Origin: Thermodesulfobacteriota bacterium
GTDB taxonomy: Bacteria; Desulfobacterota_D; UBA1144; Nemesobacterales; UBA2774
Assembly (NCBI GenBank): GCA_963422265.1
Contig: OY729416.1
Coordinates: 640,001 to 704,000 of the forward strand
Length of the DNA stretch: 64,000 bases
Reading direction: 5' to 3'
Numbering within the stretch: position 1 is the stretch's first letter; every line of letters begins with the position of its first letter. The notes beneath the pieces were generated by a model. It did no database searches. It was not told the DNA's origin and was given only the letters and a program-made list of their open reading frames with translations. The translations under genes and the position numbers were made by a program. Below, piece by piece: positions 5,773 to 64,000 of this stretch.

Positions 5773-7401
5773 CTAAAGCGATCTCCTAATACCAGACACA
5801 AGCATATCATCTAAAAGCTTTAATAACAATAGCAAGTTTTTCTTTGAACACTCATCCATCAATGATATCTGAATCCAGTTCCTTTTTTGTAGATAAACGC
5901 TTCTCCAACTCAAGAAAAATCCCTCTCGTTCAAGACGCTCACCTAATTCTCTGGAGCTTATCTGAGGAGGAAGCACGATAGTTGTTAGTGAAGGAGAAAA
6001 ATTCTCTTCGGAAGCAATAATTAAGAACCCTAAATGACGAAGCTTCCCTCTTAGCCATAATGAAAGCTCCCTCAACGTGCCGAATCTTCTCTCAAAATCG
6101 GTATTTTCTATTGATTCCTTAAGTGCGTAAATAAGATTAGACGACAAGGTGTATGGAACTCCCTCCGACTTTGCGTAACCCCCTATATCCAAGTATCTAG
6201 GAATAAAGCAGGGGGCTGGAGAGATCTCATGATTATAGAAAACAAAAGAAAGCCCCGCATAAGAAGCGAGGCCTTTTCCACTTACCCCTGAGGCAAGATA
6301 TACATCGGATAAGTCAAGAGGCGTAGTGCCTAAAGAACTCACACAATCTAAGCACAGTAGAACATCCCTAGCGGTACAGATTTTTTTTAGAATTTCCAAA
6401 TCATTGAGAATGCCACTAGAGGTCTCCGCATGGACTACCCAGAGCCAGTTGATTTTTCTATCGGACTGAAGAGCTTTCTCTATTGCCCCTGGAGTAAATG
6501 AATTACCCCATTTAAGCTTTATTGAATTAAAAGATAAACCTGTTCTTACCGCATGATCACATAACCTCTCTCCAAATTCTCCATTAGAAATAATTAGTCC
6601 TTTGCCTCTTATAAGTGAGAGTTGATAAGCCACGGCGTCGTTCGCTAAAGTGCCTGATCCCATCAATATCTCAACGTGTTTGGAGTTTACGAGACTTGAT
6701 AGGATGGCTTTTACAGATTTAAGATCTTTTATAAACACCGGAGATCTGTGGGATACGGGGGAACTGACGAAGGCACTTTTTACTGAAGGCTTTACACTCA
6801 CGGGACCTGGTAATAGATTAAGGGGGATTCTGTCTAGTGGTTTAGGTTCTCTCATCCGCGATAGAAGCTTATTGCCTTCCTTAAATTTAAGATAAGATTC
6901 ACAGGTCATATACATCGGTTGATACGCCGCATTTTCTTTTCCAACGAGGGAACCGAAGGGAATAAACCCCAGCTTCTGATAAAGCTCTGACTGACTCGGC
7001 GTCGCGGAAATAAGGGCAAGGTCATAGTTCATTTCTTCGCAGTACTCCGCCAACAAAATAAAAAGCCCTTGTATGACTTTTCTGTGGCGGCGCCCTGTTT
7101 TTACGGATAACAACCTTATCTCACATAGAGAACTTGATTCTGGCAGATATGAATCCAGATTCTCAAGCTTATGATCAAGGGAAAAAGGACGCTTGTCTCT
7201 CACCGCTATCATTCCAACAAGCTCACCACTATCTAAACATATAATATATACGTTTTCATTATGAAACTTATCCTCAAGCACACGCACAGGGTTAGCGTCG
7301 TGCTGCGGTATCTCCTCCACAAACGTCTCGTAGTTGAGTTTGGCAATCTGCTCAAACTCAACTATATCGGAAGCAATCTTAAACTCTAAACCCCTTGCCA
7401 T
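5773..7401 (-). CDS. GNAT/acyl-synthase-like domain fused to a class V PLP-dependent aminotransferase
   Basis: N-terminal half has LNYETFVEEIPQH, CEIRLLSV and LYQKLGF; C-terminal half has LLPGP, SHRS, GSGT, VHAETSSG, DCVSS and SGKG. Start at 7401 (alternative 7428). Confidence 0.8.
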   Translation of the reverse strand: MARGLEFKIASDIVEFEQIAKLNYETFVEEIPQHDANPVRVLEDKFHNENVYIICLDSGELVGMIAVRDKRPFSLDHKLENLDSYLPESSSLCEIRLLSVKTGRRHRKVIQGLFILLAEYCEEMNYDLALISATPSQSELYQKLGFIPFGSLVGKENAAYQPMYMTCESYLKFKEGNKLLSRMREPKPLDRIPLNLLPGPVSVKPSVKSAFVSSPVSHRSPVFIKDLKSVKAILSSLVNSKHVEILMGSGTLANDAVAYQLSLIRGKGLIISNGEFGERLCDHAVRTGLSFNSIKLKWGNSFTPGAIEKALQSDRKINWLWVVHAETSSGILNDLEILKKICTARDVLLCLDCVSSLGTTPLDLSDVYLASGVSGKGLASYAGLSFVFYNHEISPAPCFIPRYLDIGGYAKSEGVPYTLSSNLIYALKESIENTDFERRFGTLRELSLWLRGKLRHLGFLIIASEENFSPSLTTIVLPPQISSRELGERLEREGFFLSWRSVYLQKRNWIQISLMDECSKKNLLLLLKLLDDMLVSGIRRSL

Positions 7402-7461
7402 ACTATTATCTCTCGCGCATATCAACAAACAAGCTAAGGATGCCTTAATGAAAGTTACAAA

Positions 7462-10435: not shown

Positions 10436-11590
10436 TTAATATACCGTTCCTCTCTTATCCTCAATATATCTTCCTAGTCTTCGAATCCCTTCTTTGATGT
10501 CAGAAATTGACGTCGCATAAGAAAACCTTAAATATCCCTGCCCCCCATGCCCAAAATCTATACCCGGCGTGATTGCCACTTTGGCGCTTTCAAGAATGTC
10601 AAAGGATAGCGCGTGTGAGTCTTTGCCCAGTGCGGAAACATCAACAAACACGTAAAAGGCACCTTTAGGCTCAGCCTTTATAGTGAACCCTAGCCTCCTA
10701 AGCCCTTTAAGTATAGTTTTTCTTCTCTCATCAAAATACAGAACCCGCCTAGCCGCTTGGTTCTTTGCGTCCCTCAGGGCTTTGATCCCCGCGCGTTGGA
10801 CGAAAGGACTGACCGATATGAAAAGGTTTTGCTGAAGCTTCTGTAAAGGACGCACACATGCCTCGGGGACGATTAAATATCCAAGACGCCAACCAGTCAT
10901 TGAATAGAATTTGGAGAAACCATTCACAACGCAGGCGTTATCCGTATATCTAAGTATCGTGTTAACCTCTTCGCCATAAGTAAGCCCGTGATATATTTCA
11001 TCTGATATAACGTATATACCAAGCCCAGCAATTTTTTTAATAACTTCACCCCTGAGGACCATGCCCGTGGGATTTGCAGGCGAGTTGATTAGTATTGCCC
11101 TTGTTCTTGAAGTAATAGCCTTTTTAAGTCTGCTGATGTTGATCTGAAATCCTTCTTCCTCATAGATTCTGACTGTCTTTGGCACCCCCCCAGCAATTTT
11201 AATGATCTGTGGATAACACGCGTAGTAAGGGTCAGTAATAACAACCTCATCCCCGGGTTCAATGTGCGAAATCATAGACAGAAAAAGAGCGGGAGAACTA
11301 CCCATCGTAACCGCAACGCGGCTAGGTGATAAGTTAATGCCATATGCCCTTTTATAGTCTTCCGAGATCGCCTCGCGCAACTCAGGCATTCCCATACTAT
11401 GTGTGTACTTCGTATCACCCTCGTTGATAGCGGACTCAGCCTCTCGGCAGATAGGAGCAGGAGTAGGAAAATCAGGTTCACCAACCTCAAAATGTATAAT
11501 TCTATCCCCTTGGTGCTCAAGCTCCTTTGCCCTTTCCAACACGTCCATTACATAAAAAGGTGATATATCTTGAGAGAGCTTTGACGGCAT
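10436..11590 (-). CDS. Class I/II PLP-dependent aminotransferase
   Basis: GEPDF, NSPANPTG, SDEIY and SKFYSMTGWRLG motifs. Confidence 0.93.
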   Translation of the reverse strand: MPSKLSQDISPFYVMDVLERAKELEHQGDRIIHFEVGEPDFPTPAPICREAESAINEGDTKYTHSMGMPELREAISEDYKRAYGINLSPSRVAVTMGSSPALFLSMISHIEPGDEVVITDPYYACYPQIIKIAGGVPKTVRIYEEEGFQINISRLKKAITSRTRAILINSPANPTGMVLRGEVIKKIAGLGIYVISDEIYHGLTYGEEVNTILRYTDNACVVNGFSKFYSMTGWRLGYLIVPEACVRPLQKLQQNLFISVSPFVQRAGIKALRDAKNQAARRVLYFDERRKTILKGLRRLGFTIKAEPKGAFYVFVDVSALGKDSHALSFDILESAKVAITPGIDFGHGGQGYLRFSYATSISDIKEGIRRLGRYIEDKRGTVY

Positions 11591-11641
11591 GGGGAATTTT
11601 ATTCTAAGCTTAAAGGAAAAAGTTGTCCACAGGACGCTTCG

Positions 11642-12178
11642 TTACACTTTATTTCCTTTTCCTAGTGCTTTATCAATTTGCCTCTTAAGAAGCTCTCGTT
11701 TCAGCCTCTCGAGCCTGTCAAAGAAAAGCACGCCATCTAAATGGTCAATCTCGTGTTGAAGCACCCGCGCCATCAATTCTCTTGCATCAATCTGCACAGG
11801 ATTACCTCCACGGTCGTAACCATCTACTACCACGCTTGCTTTCCTTTTAACGTTACTCAGAAAACCCGGAACACTAAGGCATCCTTCCTCTCCTATGGCT
11901 TCTCCATCTGAGAAAACTATTTCTGGGTTGATTAGCTCAACAAGCCCGGATCTGTCGTATTCTTCTTTAGAATTCGGGTTTTTTGGTGTAGTATCAGCGA
12001 CTATTACCCTCTTGTTTACACCGACCTGAGGAGCAGCCAGCCCGACTCCCGGAGCCTCATACATTGTATCAGCCATATCATCTAAGAGCTTTAAGACGTC
12101 CCCGTCTATCTCTTCGACTGGCTTACATTTCTTCCTTAAAATGGGATTCGGATAAAGAAGGATTCTTAATAATACCAT
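11642..12178 (-). CDS. def: Peptide deformylase
   Basis: GVGLAAPQ, EGCLS and QHEIDHLDG motifs. Confidence 0.97.
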   Translation of the reverse strand: MVLLRILLYPNPILRKKCKPVEEIDGDVLKLLDDMADTMYEAPGVGLAAPQVGVNKRVIVADTTPKNPNSKEEYDRSGLVELINPEIVFSDGEAIGEEGCLSVPGFLSNVKRKASVVVDGYDRGGNPVQIDARELMARVLQHEIDHLDGVLFFDRLERLKRELLKRQIDKALGKGNKV

Positions 12179-12216
12179 AAAGGCTAAATGCTATCCGAGA
12201 GCACATTATTGTCAAT

Positions 12217-12495
12217 TTATTCACTGTCCAACTTGCCTATTAGCCCTCTGCTTGGTCTGAAGTGTGGGAGCTTTTTTTCAGAAACAATAACCTTTTCTCC
12301 CGTCTTTGGATTTCTCCCTTCATACGACCCGTAACTTTTTGTAAAGAAACTACCGAAGCCCCTTATCTCAATTCTTCCTCCCCGTTCGAGCACCTCTGTC
12401 ATATGATCTATTATAGTATTGAGAATTTGCTCGGATTGAGACGGCTGAAGATTAAACTCATTTGCCAGCTCTCTTTCAATTTCTGATCTCTTCAT
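12217..12495 (-). CDS. ihfB: Integration host factor beta / HU-family DNA-binding protein
   Basis: RIEIRGFGSF, GRNPKTGE and PHFRP motifs. Confidence 0.8.
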   Translation of the reverse strand: MKRSEIERELANEFNLQPSQSEQILNTIIDHMTEVLERGGRIEIRGFGSFFTKSYGSYEGRNPKTGEKVIVSEKKLPHFRPSRGLIGKLDSE

Positions 12496-12546
12496 AGAAT
12501 ATATCTACCTGCAGCGGTAAAAGCACACAACTCAACCCCAAGTGCC

Positions 12547-12575
12547 ATTGTAGATAGTTGTTGAATGTTTGTCAA
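12547..12575 (-). promoter_or_regulatory. Sigma70-type promoter for ihfB
   Basis: Minus strand TTGACA-17 nt-TACAAT, about 50 nt upstream of the start codon. Confidence 0.7.
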
Positions 12576-12790
12576 ACTTTGTATGGGTAAAAAGGATTCG
12601 TCTAAACTAAAACCCTGCTAACAATGTGGCGTTTGTTTTCTATCTGCATTTATTCGTATTCCTTATCCCCATATGTCGTAAGCAGGGAGGTGCAACACCC
12701 CGATAACCGCATTTAGGGACATGCACACGGAACTATTTTGTCTGACTAAATCCTAAGACGAAGGAAGTCCTTGAGCTAGATGTTATAAAC

Positions 12791-13459
12791 TTACTTAGTA
12801 ATACGGTATCTTTCGTCATAACCGGTAGGTTTACTATAATCGCCTTCTATAAACATCTCCCTTGCGGGATCGATCTTCTCGGTGTTTCTTCTCTTATCAA
12901 GCTCATCTTCATATTTAGCTTCACTTAAAGCCCTGTAAGTGTATTCTATTTTCATAGTATTATCCTTTTTATTAGTGTGAAGGACGAGCTTTACCTTAGG
13001 TGTTTGCCACGTCCAAGAGTTAAAATAGAGCATACTATCTTCATCATTGGGCTTGCCGTATCGTTCATTTAAGTAATTTATGAGCTTATTCCTCAACTCC
13101 ACCCGCTCTAAAGCACTAAGGCTAACAAAACTAAGTGAGGTTGACAGTAACTTCTTATCATAAAATTCAAGAACTGTATGGACTTCCTTGCCATTTATAT
13201 CTAAAGGTAAATCAACCACCACGCCATGAATAACAATCGTTCTTATCTCCTTAGAGTCAACATTATTTTGCACTATGGCCTTGTGATTAGAATCAATAAT
13301 TCTCATAGCCTCCTTTTTAGAAATTTTGAACTGAAAACCCAAAGGTGCAAGATCAGTTCCCGGACTGGAGTTGGGGACTTGGTTTTGAGCCAAAGATACA
13401 GTGGAAACAAGAAAGAAAGACAAAATAAAAACCATATATGGCATCCTAACTAAACGCAT
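12791..13459 (-). CDS. Hypothetical exported protein
   Basis: 222-aa ORF with Sec signal peptide (ending VSLA-Q) and GGAGA SD. Confidence 0.75.
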   Translation of the reverse strand: MRLVRMPYMVFILSFFLVSTVSLAQNQVPNSSPGTDLAPLGFQFKISKKEAMRIIDSNHKAIVQNNVDSKEIRTIVIHGVVVDLPLDINGKEVHTVLEFYDKKLLSTSLSFVSLSALERVELRNKLINYLNERYGKPNDEDSMLYFNSWTWQTPKVKLVLHTNKKDNTMKIEYTYRALSEAKYEDELDKRRNTEKIDPAREMFIEGDYSKPTGYDERYRITK

Positions 13460-19791: not shown

Positions 19792-19883
19792 GGAGAGGTG
19801 ACCGAGCGGCTGAAGGTGCACGCCTGGAAAGCGTGTAGGGGGTTAACGCTCCCTCGAGGGTTCGAATCCCTCCCTCTCCGCCA
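19792..19883 (+). tRNA. tRNA-Ser(GGA)
   Basis: GGAGAGG/CCTCTCC acceptor stem, anticodon arm CACGC-CTGGAAA-GCGTG, long variable arm, GGTTCGAATCC T-loop, encoded CCA. Confidence 0.97.
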
Positions 19884-21781: not shown

Positions 21782-21887
<106 letters not shown>

Positions 21888-55381: not shown

Positions 55382-56182
55382 ATGAGTAGAGTTCTGTTAC
55401 TAGTCTTTATAGCTTTTGGGGTTATTGGGGGTTGTGGAGTAGGTAATATCCGCTCGGATAAAGAAAAAGTTAGAACTCCGATATACAGTTACAGAATTAT
55501 CAACGCCTATAACCACGATGACAGGGCTTTCACTCAGGGATTAGCCTTTGATAACGGCACTTTTTATGAAAGCACCGGACTACACGGTAAATCAACCATA
55601 AGGAAGGTTGACTTTAGAACGGGAAAAGTGCTTAAATCCTACAAACTGCCCAACAAGTATTTCGGTGAGGGAATAGCAATTGTGGGTAACGAGATAATAC
55701 AAATTACCTGGAAGTCAAAAATCGGATTTGTATATGACAAAAATACGTTTAACCACCTAAAAACCTTTCACTATAACTCTCAGGGGTGGGGTCTCACCTA
55801 TGACGGCAATTACTTAATTATGAGCGACGGGAGCGAGACTCTGCGCTTCTTGCACCCTAAGACTTTCAATTTAGTCAGGAAACTAAACGTGCATGACGAC
55901 AACGGAACCGTTAAAAAATTAAACGAGCTTGAATACGTCCCACGCGCCAATGGAGGAGAAATTTTAGCCAATATTTGGCAATCTGACAGTATAGCTAGAA
56001 TAGACCCCGTGAACGGACGCGTTAAGGGATGGATAGACATTAGTAACCTGCTAAACGAAGATGATGTTAAAAAACCGGCGGACGGACCAAACGGAATAGC
56101 TTATGACTCTGGAAATAAGCGGCTATTTGTTACCGGAAAATTCTGGCCTAAAGTCTTTGAGATTGAGTTGGTTTTAGATTAG
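55382..56182 (+). CDS. Glutaminyl-peptide cyclotransferase (beta-propeller type), lipoprotein
   Basis: FTQGL, ESTG, FGEG, QGWGL, SDGS, LNELE, NGIAYD and TGK.WP motifs. Confidence 0.92.
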   Translation: MSRVLLLVFIAFGVIGGCGVGNIRSDKEKVRTPIYSYRIINAYNHDDRAFTQGLAFDNGTFYESTGLHGKSTIRKVDFRTGKVLKSYKLPNKYFGEGIAIVGNEIIQITWKSKIGFVYDKNTFNHLKTFHYNSQGWGLTYDGNYLIMSDGSETLRFLHPKTFNLVRKLNVHDDNGTVKKLNELEYVPRANGGEILANIWQSDSIARIDPVNGRVKGWIDISNLLNEDDVKKPADGPNGIAYDSGNKRLFVTGKFWPKVFEIELVLD

Positions 56183-57068
56183 ATATTCTCTCAAGCGCGA
56201 GTAGCAAAGCCTGAGTGCCCTTACGCCCATGTCCCTGAGCTTTTGTAGCGATGTAAAGTTGATGCACTAATGACAGTCCGGGTAGGACAATACCCATCCT
56301 TTGGGACTCTTTAAGGGCAATTCCCATATCCTTAATAAAATGCTCAACGTAAAAACCCGGTCTGAAGTCCCTACTTACGATTCTAGGCGCCAGATTATCC
56401 AGCATCCAGCAGGCGGCAGCCCCTTTGCTAATGGAGCTAAGCATAGTGTTCACGTCTAGTCCTGCTCTATAAGCGTAAAGCAAGGTCTCACACGTGCCTA
56501 TCATAATCCCGGTTGCCATTATCTGATTGCACATTTTGGCGTGTTGTCCCTTCCCAGCTTTTCCTTGATGCACTATATTCTTTCCCATAAGCCTAAGCAA
56601 AGGCATAATTTCTCGAATCGCTCCCTTATCACCCCCGATCATTATAGAGAGCGTCCCTGCCCTAGCACCAATATCGCCACCCGAAACGGGCGCGTCAATG
56701 GCGGCTACCCTAAGATTTTTAGCGTAATTGTAAATCTCCTCGGCAAGAGATGGTTCAGTCGTCGTCATATCAACCAATGTGCTTCCCTCTTTAACGCCTT
56801 CAAACAAACCATTCTTTTCAAAATAGACCTCTCGGACATCTTTCGGGAAACCAATTATTGTAAATATAACGTTAGACCTTTCAGCTACCTGCTTCGGAGA
56901 CTTTGCCCATTCAGCCCCTTTGTCAAGCAACTGCTTCGCCTTTTTTTTCGTACGATTATAAACAACCACTTTATAACCCTTGTCAGTTAAATGCACACAC
57001 ATGGCGTTTCCCATAACGCCCGTTCCAATCCAGCCTATATTCGTTCTTGACGTGCTCACCCTAATCAT
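56148..57068 (-). CDS. NAD(P)-dependent beta-hydroxyacid dehydrogenase (3-hydroxyisobutyrate/tartronate semialdehyde reductase family)
   Basis: GWIGTGVMG, DAPVSGGD, KMCNQ and KDM motifs. Confidence 0.9.
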   Translation of the reverse strand: MIRVSTSRTNIGWIGTGVMGNAMCVHLTDKGYKVVVYNRTKKKAKQLLDKGAEWAKSPKQVAERSNVIFTIIGFPKDVREVYFEKNGLFEGVKEGSTLVDMTTTEPSLAEEIYNYAKNLRVAAIDAPVSGGDIGARAGTLSIMIGGDKGAIREIMPLLRLMGKNIVHQGKAGKGQHAKMCNQIMATGIMIGTCETLLYAYRAGLDVNTMLSSISKGAAACWMLDNLAPRIVSRDFRPGFYVEHFIKDMGIALKESQRMGIVLPGLSLVHQLYIATKAQGHGRKGTQALLLALERISNLKPTQSQRL

Positions 57069-59894: not shown

Positions 59895-59981
59895 TTGGGT
59901 TTGACATAATTACCAGTATAGGTTCAATATACGTTCGTATAGATGAAGCACACGTTATGAATTGCACACAATCACTGAACC

Positions 59982-60055
59982 GTCCCCGTAGCTCAGCAGG
60001 ATAGAGCACAGGATTCCTAATCCTGGGGTCAGAGGTTCGAATCCTCTCGGGGACG
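59982..60055 (+). tRNA. tRNA-Arg(CCT)
   Basis: GTCCCCG/CGGGGAC acceptor stem, anticodon arm CAGGA-TTCCTAA-TCCTG, GGTTCGAATCC T-loop; CCA not encoded. Confidence 0.96.
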
Positions 60056-60065
60056 CAGTTTCTTT

Positions 60066-60983
60066 ATGGATCAGATACATATAATTTTATTTTACAAATT
60101 CACCGACATAGCCAACCCTGAGGAGTTTGCCAAGTCGCACTTGAGTTTCTGTAAGGGAGAAGAGCTAGTAGGCAAAGTGCTAGTAGCAAACGAGGGCATC
60201 AACGGCTCGCTCTCAGGTTCTAAAGAGCAGGTTGGCAAATATAAAAGATACCTGACGGGAATAGAACAATTCTCGGACGTAGTTTTTAGAGAGGAGACTT
60301 GCTCGTTTCATCCATTTAAGAAAATGGTAGTCCGCGTTAAAAATGAAATAATAAGAATGGAGCAAGAACTAGATTTAACTAAAAGAGGAAAATACATAAC
60401 TCCTGAAGAATTACTTGAGCTTTATGAGACCGATGAAGACTTCATAATCCTAGATGCGCGAAATAGATATGAATCGGAGGTAGGAAGGTTCAAGAACGCT
60501 ATTACCCCTGACATAGAAACCTTTAGAGAATTTCCGGAAGCACTTAAATCGTTTAGCAAAGTAAAGGACAAAAAAATTGTCACCTACTGCACAGGTGGAA
60601 TAAGGTGTGAAAAAGCTACCGCATACATGTTAAAAGAAGGTTTTACAAATGTTTATCAGCTTAAAGGCGGTATTATAAACTTTTGCCAGAAACATCATAA
60701 CACAGTTTGGAATGGAAAATGCTTTGTATTTGATCAAAGACTAATCTCAGACGTCGATCCAGAAAGTGGCTCAATCACAACATGCGTTTCTTGCAACGAG
60801 AGTTGCGACAAGTATCGGAACTGTAAACACGTTGCCTGCGACAATCTGATAATACTATGTGATCTTTGCACTCACAGACTGAATGGATGCTGTTCTCAGG
60901 CTTGCGCTGAAGAATACAGCTCTCATGTAACTAAAAAATCACAAGAAAGACAAGCCCATCATCTTTTAAGAGAAGTTAAGTAG
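60066..60983 (+). CDS. trhO: tRNA uridine(34) hydroxylase (rhodanese-domain, YceA/UPF0176)
   Basis: LFYKF, EGING, DARNRYE..GRF, YCTGGIRCEKA, GKCFVFD.R and a Cys-rich tail. Confidence 0.92.
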   Translation: MDQIHIILFYKFTDIANPEEFAKSHLSFCKGEELVGKVLVANEGINGSLSGSKEQVGKYKRYLTGIEQFSDVVFREETCSFHPFKKMVVRVKNEIIRMEQELDLTKRGKYITPEELLELYETDEDFIILDARNRYESEVGRFKNAITPDIETFREFPEALKSFSKVKDKKIVTYCTGGIRCEKATAYMLKEGFTNVYQLKGGIINFCQKHHNTVWNGKCFVFDQRLISDVDPESGSITTCVSCNESCDKYRNCKHVACDNLIILCDLCTHRLNGCCSQACAEEYSSHVTKKSQERQAHHLLREVK

Positions 60984-61065
60984 AACCAAGAAGAGCGCTA
61001 GATTCCTCGGCTATGCGCAAGTAATGATAATAAGCAGTGGCATACCCTTAGGTTAGATGTCATAA

Positions 61066-64000
61066 TCACTCTACCGTTAGTTTTGCCTTCTTGGCTTTGG
61101 ACTTCTTAGCAATAAACTTTTTAAGTTCCCTTCCATCCGTTTTAAGAAGCTGCTTGAGGCGTGACGCGTTTACCTCAGCAACAATAATATCGCCTACTTC
61201 CATGTGAACGTTCCCATAAATTTGAAGAGCCTGCATACCCTTGGTCTGTTTCTGGTTGTCCTCAGTGGGGCTTACGTAATGGACTGAGATAGCCTTATAC
61301 CTATGAATCAGGAACAAATGTATCAAAGCCATCAATCTCTTCTGGCGATATTTAGCGTCAAACGTATTTTGATCCCTTACGGAAATTGTGGGTTTACCCG
61401 TGCGGTCATGGATCGTAGTGAAGACAACATCCGCTATCTTTTTCTCTTCTTCGTCATAAACCCCTAGTTCAAGGATATCCGAACCAGCGGTATGAGGCCT
61501 TAGCCGAACGTGGAAATATCCAGGGAAATTATTATGAGCCGTCCATAACTCTAGCCACTGCTCTAAAAGTTTAGGTGGCACCTCAGTCTCCACCAAGTGC
61601 TGGACCTGAGTAGAACCCTTACCCATAGCCTTAGTGGTAGCGGTGCGACCCGAAGAAGCAGAAAGGGCGCTATCCAGACGTGGACCACCAACCAAGGTCT
61701 GCGGCGTTTTGTAAGGCGAATCAAGCAGTCTGAACTTCCTCTGCAACCTAGCCAGCGCCAGCATACCATCTTGTCTAAGCGCAGTGGCGAACTCTTCGGT
61801 GGCAAGTCCGTCAATCTGGTGACCTCCGTAAGTAATAAAATCAAAAACGTAACCGAGCTTGCCGATCTCCTCGGGGAAAACTCTCATCTCATCCTCGGTC
61901 ATACCCGTAGTATCCCAGTTGAAGGATGGCGACAAATTGTAAGCAAGCATCTTATCAGGATAGACAGCGTGAATAGCATTGGCGAACTGCCTTGCTTCTT
62001 CTAAATTAGCGGTCTTAGTCTCCATCCATATAAGATCGGCGTAGGGTGCTACTGCTAAGGACTTAGCAATCGCATATTCAATACCGCCTTTCACTTGATA
62101 GTAGCCCTCAGGGGTTCGGGCAAGTTCACAATCCCACGAAGCCTCAACCCCCATTGACCTAGCTTGTTCACGTGCATTGTGAAACGAAGTGTGAGCCGCC
62201 AGCTCAAACCATTCATCAATACTCATACTCAGCTTCCTGCCCTCTTCTATCTGAAATTCCATCTTGTCGGCAACCGCCTGCGCGAACGTCATAAGACCGG
62301 ACTCCACTTCCCATACCTCAACAAACTTTGACACCGCATTGTCAAGCGGCTTGGTAATACTCCTTTCCTGTCCATCTTTAAGTGCCTGAATACTTTCATC
62401 AATAATTAAAGTCAAGCCCACTTGATCAAACCATTTATAAGTCTCTCCATATTCAGAATCAGAAAGTTGATACAAGAGATGACCGTTGACGTCGGTTACA
62501 CCTTTATCAAAGAATCTTTTAAGTATCGCCAGATAACAATTCTTATAGCCAGGTATGTTAATATTTGTAGCTCCAAGGATGAATGGGTGGTCACGCTCGT
62601 CACCCCTTCCGTCAAGAAGGGTCGCCGCCTCGGCATCAGTTCTGGCAACGATAATCCCCGGGACCTTCATAATATCAAGCTGGAATCTAGCGGCGTTTAA
62701 TCTCTTTATTTGCTCGTCAACTGGGACAAGCACTTTACCCCCTTGGTGTCCACACTTTTTTGTGCCGGGCTTTTGATCCTCAATGTGATATCCAGTAACC
62801 CCAACTTCAACAAACCTTCGTATGAGATTCCTCACATGGGCATCTCCGCCATGTCCCGTATCAGCGTCAGCAATAATAAAAGGCCTGTAGTCATAGTGTG
62901 GGGTAGATTTTCTCTCCTTATCAGACATTCTTGACCTTAGAAACGTCTGGTTTTTATCAGCAGTAAGTAGAGCGCGCACTAAAACCGCCGCTTCATCGGG
63001 CACTTGGCTAAGCGGATAGCTCGCCAGATCTGAACCAGGGTCCTCCTGAACGGATCCCTTCGCCGATGTTGCCCATCCCCCCAGGTAGATAGCCTCAACC
63101 CCGATCCTTTTCATGACAACCGCCTGACCCGGAGAGTAAGGACCAAAACTAGTAACCTGCTTGCCCTGTGAAAAGAGAACTCTAAGACGTCTATAAAACT
63201 CCTCAGAATATCTTCTCGCTATAGGATAGTCGTTCTCAAGAGTGCCCCTCTGCTGCACAACTTGGCGGGCGGAGTAAAGACGTCTAATACCCTTAAACCG
63301 AGGCCTCGCAAACCATTCTTTTGTTGCTTGCACTTCTCTTTCAAATGAATCAAGCTCATCCTCATAAAAAGTATCAAAACCACCTTCAGGCATAAAGTCT
63401 AAATTCTCGGTAATTCTACTTCCATCCTTCTTAAACGCGTCCATATATTGCTTTATTCTTATTTTAGCAGTAGGCAGATCGTGGTTGTTTAAGTTAATAT
63501 TCAACAGGTCAATATACCAAGGCGTTTTAACATCATCCTGAACGTAAGTCTCTACTATTTCCCTCGCAATCGGCAACGTAGTAGGCTTGGAGTTATCATG
63601 AACATCTTTGTCCTTTGCTTTAAGAAGCTTGTCGTATTCCTCGGCTAAGAGCTTTTTGAAGAGTCCAACCGTGAACACGTCTTCCTTATTCACTTTCGTT
63701 TCTTTGTCAGCTTCTGTAAGCTTTGCGCCCTTATGTACCCACTCCCAGAGTATGCTCAGGCGAATCTCCCCTGTGGCAGCGTCTTCCATAAGATAGAGTA
63801 TATTATCGTCACCAAAGAAATCCGCTGGCTTAAGAGCCGCTGCCTGAAAGCCCTGGCCAAAGGCGTTACCATATTGAAGCGCCACGCTAATCAAATTCCT
63901 CGCTCCCCTAATTGTTCTTGGCGCCGTTTCGAGAAGCCTAAGTCCATCGGCGTCCTGATCAGTATAAGTGAGAATAGGGAAACTTCTTCCAAGCTGATTG
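61066..64000 (-). CDS. Partial (5'-truncated) malate synthase-isocitrate lyase fusion protein
   Basis: Frame is open to the window edge. It reads NQL...[15 protein letters not shown]...[18 protein letters not shown] (malate synthase C-terminus), then with no stop codon a full isocitrate lyase ([45 protein letters not shown]) and an Icl2-like C-terminal domain. Confidence 0.88.

Follow-up and report, generated by a model that had tools for sequence, protein, structure and literature searches.

The end of the 64,000-nucleotide stretch of DNA analysed here (contig OY729416.1, positions 640,001 to 704,000, of the Thermodesulfobacteriota assembly GCA_963422265.1; hereafter the window) contains 2,934 nt of a minus-strand gene in which a malate synthase (MS) precedes an isocitrate lyase (ICL). 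This segment represents the 3' two-thirds of a 1416-codon MS-ICL fusion gene, the first 439 codons of which lie past the window edge. The frame in the window (61066-63999) comprises 977 codons, is free of internal stops and ends at a TGA codon (61066-61068); judged from its length and a G+C content of about 44%, such an open frame would be far beyond chance. The original prediction, a single minus-strand frame open from the window edge to a stop at 61066, holds as to the openness and the stop, but the frame starts at 63999 and not at 64000, the frame starting at 64000 being full of stops. Searching a protein database with residues 1-215 of the fragment retrieved the complete protein of the same genome (P0001, 1416 aa, on a 1.78 Mb contig): its residues 440-1416 are identical to the window fragment over all 977 positions, and its N-terminal 439 residues carry the malate synthase TIM barrel. 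Since the local G+C content at the fusion gene (0.446) falls inside the range of the window (0.405-0.452), its composition is native. Taken together with the evidence presented below, we consider that this is very probably a native chromosomal gene for a bifunctional glyoxylate-shunt enzyme, predicted from its sequence to combine a long malate synthase with an ICL2-type lyase.

Read in the direction of translation, the frame opens with the C-terminal 202 residues of the malate synthase (63394-63999; P0001 residues 440-641), which end in ITENLDF and were delimited by the Pfam MS_C domain, a local match to TIGR01344 and an alignment with nine stand-alone malate synthases of ~625 aa. Within this part lies the LMEDAAT motif (63772-63792), which aligns with malate synthase A of Escherichia coli and Bacillus anthracis and contains the presumed catalytic Asp (D512 of P0001). 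An acidic linker of 16 residues (63346-63393), placed between the ends of stand-alone malate synthases and the starts of stand-alone ICL2-type genes, separates the two enzymes. The isocitrate lyase catalytic domain follows (61627-63345, equivalent to residues ~18-590 of Mycobacterium tuberculosis ICL2); it was defined by a gapless phmmer alignment to 6edw/9obo, by TIGR01346 and by published domain limits (PMC6788997). It includes the KKCGH active-site loop (62746-62760), located by alignment to a motif described as catalytic (PMC6788997), and a helical insert (62116-62565, equivalent to ICL2 residues 278-427), mapped through the same gapless alignment and source. The remainder consists of a flexible inter-domain linker (61591-61626, equivalent to ICL2 residues 591-602), mapped in the same way and situated inside a low-confidence stretch of the structural model (757-806), and of a GNAT-like C-terminal domain (61069-61590, equivalent to ICL2 residues 603-766), which was aligned to ICL2 up to residue 765 and to 8g8k and is followed by a short Lys-rich tail.

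Both enzymes are recognised by Pfam above the respective cut-offs, in the fragment as well as in the complete protein. In the fragment, MS_C (PF20659) covers residues 67-159 (36.4 bits vs a cut-off of 23.1) and ICL (PF00463) starts at residue 222 (418.7 bits vs 26). In P0001, the MS_TIM-barrel domain (PF01274) spans residues 212-441 (157.5 bits vs 26.4), MS_C residues 506-598 (35.8 bits vs 23.1), and ICL begins at residue 661 (417 bits vs 26). The malate synthase domain is thus complete once the 439 upstream residues are supplied, as had been expected from the window alone. Likewise, the malate synthase motifs by which the fusion had been recognised are all present (NQL at the window edge, T.RG.RN.I.V.LQY, and the Asp-bearing segment at fragment residues 70-87), as are the acidic linker (fragment residues 202-218, nt 63346-63396) and the KKCGH loop (fragment residues 414-418).

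Among proteins of solved structure, the closest relatives of the malate synthase part are the malate synthases A of B. anthracis (3cux, 2e-45) and E. coli (3cuz, 1e-44), and malate synthase G gives weak local matches in the same PDB comparison (17.8-26.5 bits). The FRTRGLH, LIEQIE, GRWDY and LMEDAAT segments of P0001 align to their counterparts in E. coli malate synthase A, the last of them also matching the B. anthracis enzyme. R214, R216, E299, D327 and D512 are invariant in all ten sequences compared (P0001 and nine stand-alone relatives); from the structures of malate synthases A and G, we take R214/R216 to be the catalytic Arg, E299 and D327 the Mg ligands, and D512 the catalytic Asp. The same alignment of ten outlines a subfamily of long malate synthases of ~625 residues, with a mean column identity of 76%. 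The stand-alone relative P0099 scores 252.7 bits against the NCBIfam malate synthase A equivalog (TIGR01344), below its cut-off of 594.5. The window fragment is matched locally by the C-terminal portion of this model; the malate synthase G models (TIGR01345 / NF002825) find no match in P0001 at E <= 1e-5. On these sequence comparisons, the window malate synthase is assigned to a separate subfamily related to, and not identical with, isoform A.

Such divergence could be taken to mean that this half of the protein is not a true malate synthase, and that it would instead condense another acyl-CoA with glyoxylate, use another 2-oxo acid, or serve mainly as a regulatory or scaffold domain. The TIGR01344 score of P0001 (236.4 bits vs 594.5), the lack of any match to a malate synthase G model, a length exceeding that of malate synthase A by ~100 residues, and a literature search that found no paper on a long malate synthase family would all be compatible with this explanation. 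We nevertheless hold it to be unlikely, because no variation is seen at the Arg, the two presumed Mg ligands or the catalytic Asp, and because a model of P0099 reproduces the entire fold of malate synthase A. The latter, 78% identical to the malate synthase part of P0001, was modelled with a predicted local distance difference test (pLDDT) score of 84.1 and a predicted template modelling (pTM) score of 0.89, and it aligns to E. coli malate synthase A with a target-normalised template modelling (TM) score of 0.87 (E = 6e-30). Moreover, the domain is coupled to an isocitrate lyase, either fused or adjacent, in 36 of 80 loci classified (see below), which fits glyoxylate as the intermediate shared by the two enzymes.

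The isocitrate lyase half had been described as a complete long-form enzyme, which is confirmed, and it can be placed more exactly: by its sequence it is a Group III (ICL2-type) isocitrate lyase, with a helical insert and, on a flexible linker, a GNAT-like C-terminal domain that is predicted to bind acetyl-CoA and that had not been mentioned. Fragment residues 217-966 align without a gap to residues 16-765 of M. tuberculosis ICL2 (phmmer; 9obo and the tagged 6edw; 1134-1140 bits), an alignment that takes in the KKCGH loop, the helical insert and the C-terminal domain, which in ICL2 binds acetyl-CoA. Over the final 161 residues of this alignment, the fragment also matches that ICL2 domain in isolated form (8g8k, E = 1.2e-49), and the NCBIfam isocitrate lyase model TIGR01346 scores 445.6 bits on the fragment, against a cut-off of 275.9. 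ICL2 has been described as consisting of a catalytic domain (1-590) with the KKCGH motif (213-217) and a helical insert (278-427), a linker (591-602) and a GNAT-like domain (603-766) that binds acetyl-CoA and thereby activates the enzyme (PMC6788997). Catalytic domain, helical insert, flexible linker and GNAT-like domain all map onto the window protein. Seven residues of the C-terminal domain have been named for their acetyl-CoA contacts or nuclear magnetic resonance (NMR) shifts, and one of them, R665, contacts the acetyl group in simulations (PMC13102942). In an alignment read by hand, R665 is conserved in the window protein and A681, T711, D713 and T718 are identical as well, while E640 is conservatively replaced by D.

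M. tuberculosis ICL2 gains not only isocitrate lyase but also methylisocitrate lyase activity when acetyl-CoA or propionyl-CoA is bound (PMC6788997), so that the main role of the lyase half might be thought to be methylisocitrate cleavage in propionate metabolism, in which case the protein would not primarily be a glyoxylate-shunt module. That reaction, however, yields pyruvate, which is not a substrate of malate synthase, whereas fusion or adjacency to a malate synthase argues for the production of glyoxylate. In addition, the methylisocitrate lyase equivalog scores far below its cut-off (TIGR02317, 74-76 bits vs 354.4). We therefore regard a primary role in propionate metabolism as quite improbable.

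The junction between the two enzymes was tested by its conservation across genomes. At the protein level, the 16-residue linker joins ENLDF to FEREV (nt 63346-63393). Stand-alone malate synthases stop at ITENLDF plus a few residues, which is the exact start of the linker in the window, and the stand-alone ICL2-type genes of relatives begin 1-3 residues ahead of the equivalent FE.E motif. An AlphaFold2 model of the 977-residue fragment (pLDDT 71.0, pTM 0.49) falls below a pLDDT of 50 at fragment residues 199-213, with a helix beginning at residue 213, and low confidence over the linker would fit a flexible tether. This model was used for linker confidence only, being silent on contacts between the enzymes since it lacks the malate synthase barrel.

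Species-representative genomes were scanned with a malate synthase alignment; at least 600 stretches matched, at least 566 of which were confirmed relatives, and the best 80 were classified by script. A fused single frame of 1393-1469 codons (in one case truncated at the end of its contig) was found in 19 of the 80 loci, such that the in-frame order of malate synthase followed by isocitrate lyase, initially read from the window as one bacterial polypeptide, is kept in other species. At 17 further loci, the malate synthase ends at a stop and an ICL2-type gene follows 2-214 nt downstream on the same strand. The malate synthase is without an ICL in its flanks at 37 loci, where at least 2.5 kb of downstream sequence was seen, and at the remaining 7 the contig ends before the state can be read. 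In the 37 loci of the third class (among L011-L080), no isocitrate lyase of any type was found within flanks of up to 7 kb; most are labelled Bacteroidota or Balneolota. Wherever a lyase is present, its match reaches the C-terminal domain (35 of 36 lyase-bearing loci), the exception being the truncated L008. The fused loci carry the labels Candidatus Dadabacteria / Thermodesulfobacteriota (6) and Acidobacteriota (5), further ones being labelled Planctomycetota, Nitrospirota, Candidatus Krumholzibacteriota, "Deltaproteobacteria" and "Spirochaetia"; these labels are given as deposited and could in part reflect mis-binned contigs. For the fused and adjacent arrangements together, record labels cover about ten phyla, including cultured Planctomycetota. 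ICL2-type lyases with the C-terminal domain (loci L009-L079) bear the labels Calditrichota, Gemmatimonadota, Acidobacteriota, Planctomycetota, Nitrospirota, Thermodesulfobacteriota and others.

When ranked by the C-terminal malate synthase region, the best 120 protein clusters include 45 of at least 1200 aa and 75 of 540-700 aa. Within a length range of 778-2478 aa, at least 189 clusters match the malate synthase part, and both PF01274 and PF00463 are found in all 120 of those listed. Such fused-length clusters comprise records named Aeoliella straminimaris, Bythopirellula polymerisocia and bacterium HR37. The fusion is consequently not rare in bacteria, and the design is common in uncultured ones. 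The names attached to fused proteins in databases are limited to "isocitrate lyase/phosphoenolpyruvate mutase family protein", "malate synthase A" or "isocitrate lyase".

In principle, an assembly or sequencing error at the junction, either a missed stop codon or a frameshift, could have made one gene out of two neighbours (malate synthase, then ICL2). The genes are indeed often adjacent in relatives (17 of 80 loci), and at four of these 17 (L018, L019, L021, L022) the two share a frame and are split by a single TAG, the malate synthase stop, with no other stop between them; one base error could thus mimic a fusion. By the same token, a single base change could turn either form into the other. 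Against an error stands the recurrence of the same in-frame junction in the 19 independent species genomes and of the fused form in 45 of the best 120 protein clusters, together with the presence of both Pfam domains in every one of the 120 fused-length clusters listed (of at least 189). Furthermore, in the clade of seven fused sequences to which the window protein belongs, the linker has a constant length while its residues vary at the protein level, which fits a translated, evolving sequence. An assembly artefact is for practical purposes excluded. As a separate observation, read-through of the lone stop codon at L018, L019, L021 and L022 could give a minor fused product.

In a maximum-likelihood tree built quickly from 81 malate synthase domains, the window protein falls together with L001-L006 in the clade of seven just mentioned, with full Shimodaira-Hasegawa-like approximate likelihood ratio test (SH-aLRT) support (100). 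Most members are labelled Candidatus Dadabacteria, the closest relative being 84% identical, and near this clade lie eight unfused, adjacent-gene sequences labelled Thermodesulfobacteriota or Dadabacteria; the source of the window is most likely a Candidatus Dadabacteria-like bacterium. The gene on the other side of the stop codon is consistent with this placement. A gene for a TrhO-like tRNA uridine hydroxylase (UPF0176/rhodanese; 60066-60983, plus strand) converges with the fusion gene and ends 82 nt from its stop, and L006 also possesses a convergent TrhO gene downstream of its fusion, with a 130-codon frame in between; this shared synteny supports the same lineage as the tree. A scan of 59900-61300 for promoters and terminators returned four promoter-like signals vs 2.9 expected and one terminator-like signal vs 0.9 expected, none of them between the convergent gene ends. 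A tRNA gene (59982-60055, plus strand) is located just upstream of the TrhO-like gene. In the Dadabacteria-labelled L007, fragments of IS110 and DDE_5 transposases (11439-12867) lie directly downstream of the fused gene.

How often the fusion arose is less straightforward. Parsimony on the 81-domain tree counts eight changes between the fused and unfused states, at least two of which are forced by well-supported branches, and in an approximately unbiased (AU) test a tree with all 20 fused rows as one clade is not rejected (p = 0.186). Two classes of linker occur among the fused loci, one of about 16 residues with an acidic end resembling (S/E)EDE.D, the other of about 11 residues following ENLD(T/S)A and seen in Holophagae, Thermoanaerobaculia and Lacipirellulaceae loci; on the sequences, this hints at more than one fusion event. 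In a tree rooted on malate synthase A-like sequences, all 31 bacterial rows fall in one clade, at the base of which the divergent fused proteins P0197 and P0351 branch without resolution, and the fused pair L048 and L031 is the first to branch among the rest of that clade. With fused sequences in basal positions, fission of a fused ancestor is as open as repeated fusion. The fused state may therefore be ancestral and have later undergone fission into adjacent genes, as suggested by the basal P0197 and P0351, the early-branching L048 and L031, and giant outliers with both enzymes in one chain (described below). P0351 is a EukProt Trinity transcript of 1397 aa with the same succession of malate synthase, linker, ICL2 and C-terminal domain, 58% identical to P0001 over 1388 positions; it could be either a genuine eukaryotic gene or bacterial contamination. 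Given this identical architecture, the MS-ICL2 module may have seeded the MS-ICL fusions of eukaryotes.

If the two halves function as their sequences predict, the ICL2-type lyase would cleave isocitrate into succinate and glyoxylate, and the tethered malate synthase would condense this glyoxylate with acetyl-CoA to yield malate. If M. tuberculosis ICL2 is a guide, the core of the lyase is probably tetrameric, and acetyl-CoA bound by the GNAT-like C-terminal domain would turn the lyase on. The same compound would in this manner be both the activator of the first step and a co-substrate of the second. Fusion would guarantee 1:1 expression as well as proximity of the active sites, and the latter may limit the escape of reactive glyoxylate, any channelling being a putative consequence of the design.

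Several considerations weigh against the bifunctional enzyme proposed here. The N-terminal 439 residues of P0001 come from a database record and not from the DNA of the window. P0001 stays well below the malate synthase A equivalog cut-off, and the substrate specificity of this separate long subfamily is a predicted one. Of the seven ICL2 residues named above, Y716 differs, being replaced by K. M. tuberculosis ICL2 being also a methylisocitrate lyase, the lyase half could, by analogy, serve a second pathway. Finally, substrate channelling does not follow from a short flexible tether alone.

One could go further and envisage the long malate synthase and the Group III lyase as an ancient, co-inherited module, the fused form of which would be an acetyl-CoA-gated glyoxylate shunt. 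We put this forward tentatively, together with the ancestral fused state and the seeding of eukaryotic fusions considered above, as a possibility with the odds still against it. Were it true, a single effector would both start the production of glyoxylate and consume it, and free glyoxylate would never accumulate. Independently of this idea, the fused family offers models outside pathogens for the allostery of ICL2, as well as a natural setting in which to ask if less glyoxylate leaks when the two shunt enzymes are tethered. The fused gene would also represent a compact, single-gene glyoxylate shunt for metabolic engineering, and the generic database names of its products flag an annotation gap.

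Elsewhere in the window, about 4 kb from the fusion gene, a minus-strand gene (56148-57068) encodes a 306-aa dehydrogenase of the HIBADH family. Its best match is 2-hydroxy-3-oxopropionate (tartronate semialdehyde) reductase, below the cut-off (246.6 vs 340.75 bits), and a link of this enzyme to glyoxylate metabolism is possible but unsupported. Another minus-strand gene (5773-7428) encodes a 551-aa protein, the C-terminal ~340 residues of which match class V aminotransferases of the 2-aminoethylphosphonate or aspartate-glyoxylate type, far below the cut-offs; its first ~200 residues have no match. A bacterial small signal recognition particle (SRP) RNA (21788-21884, plus strand) and a second tRNA (19792-19880, plus strand) are also encoded. 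The rest of the window is of an ordinary housekeeping nature (dnaX, der, proS, recN, proA, glnE, priA, and a metal ABC transporter with MntR).

Bifunctional enzymes uniting malate synthase and isocitrate lyase are textbook oddities of nematodes and Euglena. A bacterial fusion was mentioned in 2006 for Anaeromyxobacter dehalogenans (PMC1630690). A 2021 paper states that the MS-then-ICL fusion had been reported only from Euglena and Acanthamoeba, and adds three chrysophytes and a kinetoplastid (PMC8219788), and a 2026 paper describes Group III (ICL2-type) lyases as so far seen only in mycobacteria (PMC13102942). The occurrence of ICL2-type lyases with a putative acetyl-CoA-binding domain beside or fused to a long malate synthase in 36 of 80 loci contradicts both the mycobacteria-only and the Euglena/Acanthamoeba-only statements. 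Our literature search, the coverage of which leaves most subscription journals outside, found no paper describing the fusion of a long malate synthase with an ICL2-type lyase, and the window gene is a member of a widespread bacterial family that is visible in databases and not described in print.

Among characterised enzymes, M. tuberculosis ICL2 is the closest counterpart of the lyase half, sharing with it the gapless alignment over 750 residues, the KKCGH loop, the helical insert and the GNAT-like C-terminal domain. The window protein differs from ICL2 in its additional N-terminal malate synthase of ~640 residues and the 16-residue linker, in its origin from a non-mycobacterial, Dadabacteria-like genome, and in the replacement of Y716 by K, its activation by acetyl-CoA being predicted by analogy. 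The malate synthases A of E. coli (AceB, 3CUZ) and B. anthracis (3CUX) have the same fold as the other half (TM 0.87-0.88 for the P0099 model), and the positions of the catalytic Arg, Glu, Asp and Asp are retained in the window protein. Conversely, identity in the structural alignment is about 25-28%, and the window-type synthase is ~100 residues longer.

The known bacterial fusion is of another kind. Our comparison here rests on a protein of Anaeromyxobacter sp. strain SG17 (P0358, 1109 aa), not on the A. dehalogenans protein noted in 2006. P0358 resembles the window protein in being bacterial and in having the malate synthase ahead of the ICL in one frame. Yet it contains a true malate synthase A (TIGR01344, 792.4 bits vs a cut-off of 594.5) and a Group I ICL (NF011645, 764 vs 562); it has an MS_N domain and a C-terminal hemerythrin domain, neither of which was matched by Pfam in P0001, and possesses neither the helical insert nor the GNAT-like domain. 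In the rooted tree, the malate synthase of P0358 falls among the malate synthase A-like outgroup sequences, indicating a fusion independent of the window type.

A further set of proteins is much larger. Thirteen giant chains (P0199, P0200, P0201, P0202, P0203, P0205, P0211, P0216, P0336, P0348, P0352, P0353 and P0354) contain both enzymes, the ICL either preceding or following the malate synthase. In most of them the latter is of the long type, P0336 branching outside that clade, and the named records are bacterial, from Candidatus Omnitrophota (P0201, on a 1.2 Mb contig) and Elusimicrobia (P0353). From their sequences they look like mega-enzymes of the glyoxylate shunt and gluconeogenesis, although some may be run-ons of gene calling, and a literature search on giant isocitrate lyase proteins of Omnitrophota found no paper. 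Like the window protein, those of the series P0199-P0216 and P0352-P0354 have an ICL in the chain and a malate synthase 37-50% identical to that of the window over its full length. Unlike it, they reach 1950-4828 aa and include added domains, the set of which varies from PEPCK or class V aminotransferase to TIM, aldolase and GAPDH together, or HEAT repeats; their ICL parts are 25-48% identical to that of the window, with alignments ending before the C-terminal domain.

Eukaryotic fusions differ from the window protein in domain order or in setting. The ICL-MS protein of Caenorhabditis elegans likewise unites both glyoxylate-shunt enzymes in one chain, but in the opposite order; the nematode ICL resembles alphaproteobacterial (Group I) ICL, and the nematode malate synthase resembles malate synthase A of Bacillus (PMC1630690). 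The enzyme of Euglena gracilis, like those of Acanthamoeba, the three chrysophytes and the kinetoplastid, is a single polypeptide with the malate synthase followed by the ICL, as in the window protein (PMC1630690, PMC8219788). These Euglena-type fusions are, however, eukaryotic and mitochondrial proteins. Kinship of the window fusion with the Euglena enzyme, raised at the outset as a possibility, is a putative one. The Euglena protein presumably measures ~1165 aa and, if this figure is right, would be too short to accommodate a ~625-aa malate synthase together with a full Group III ICL.

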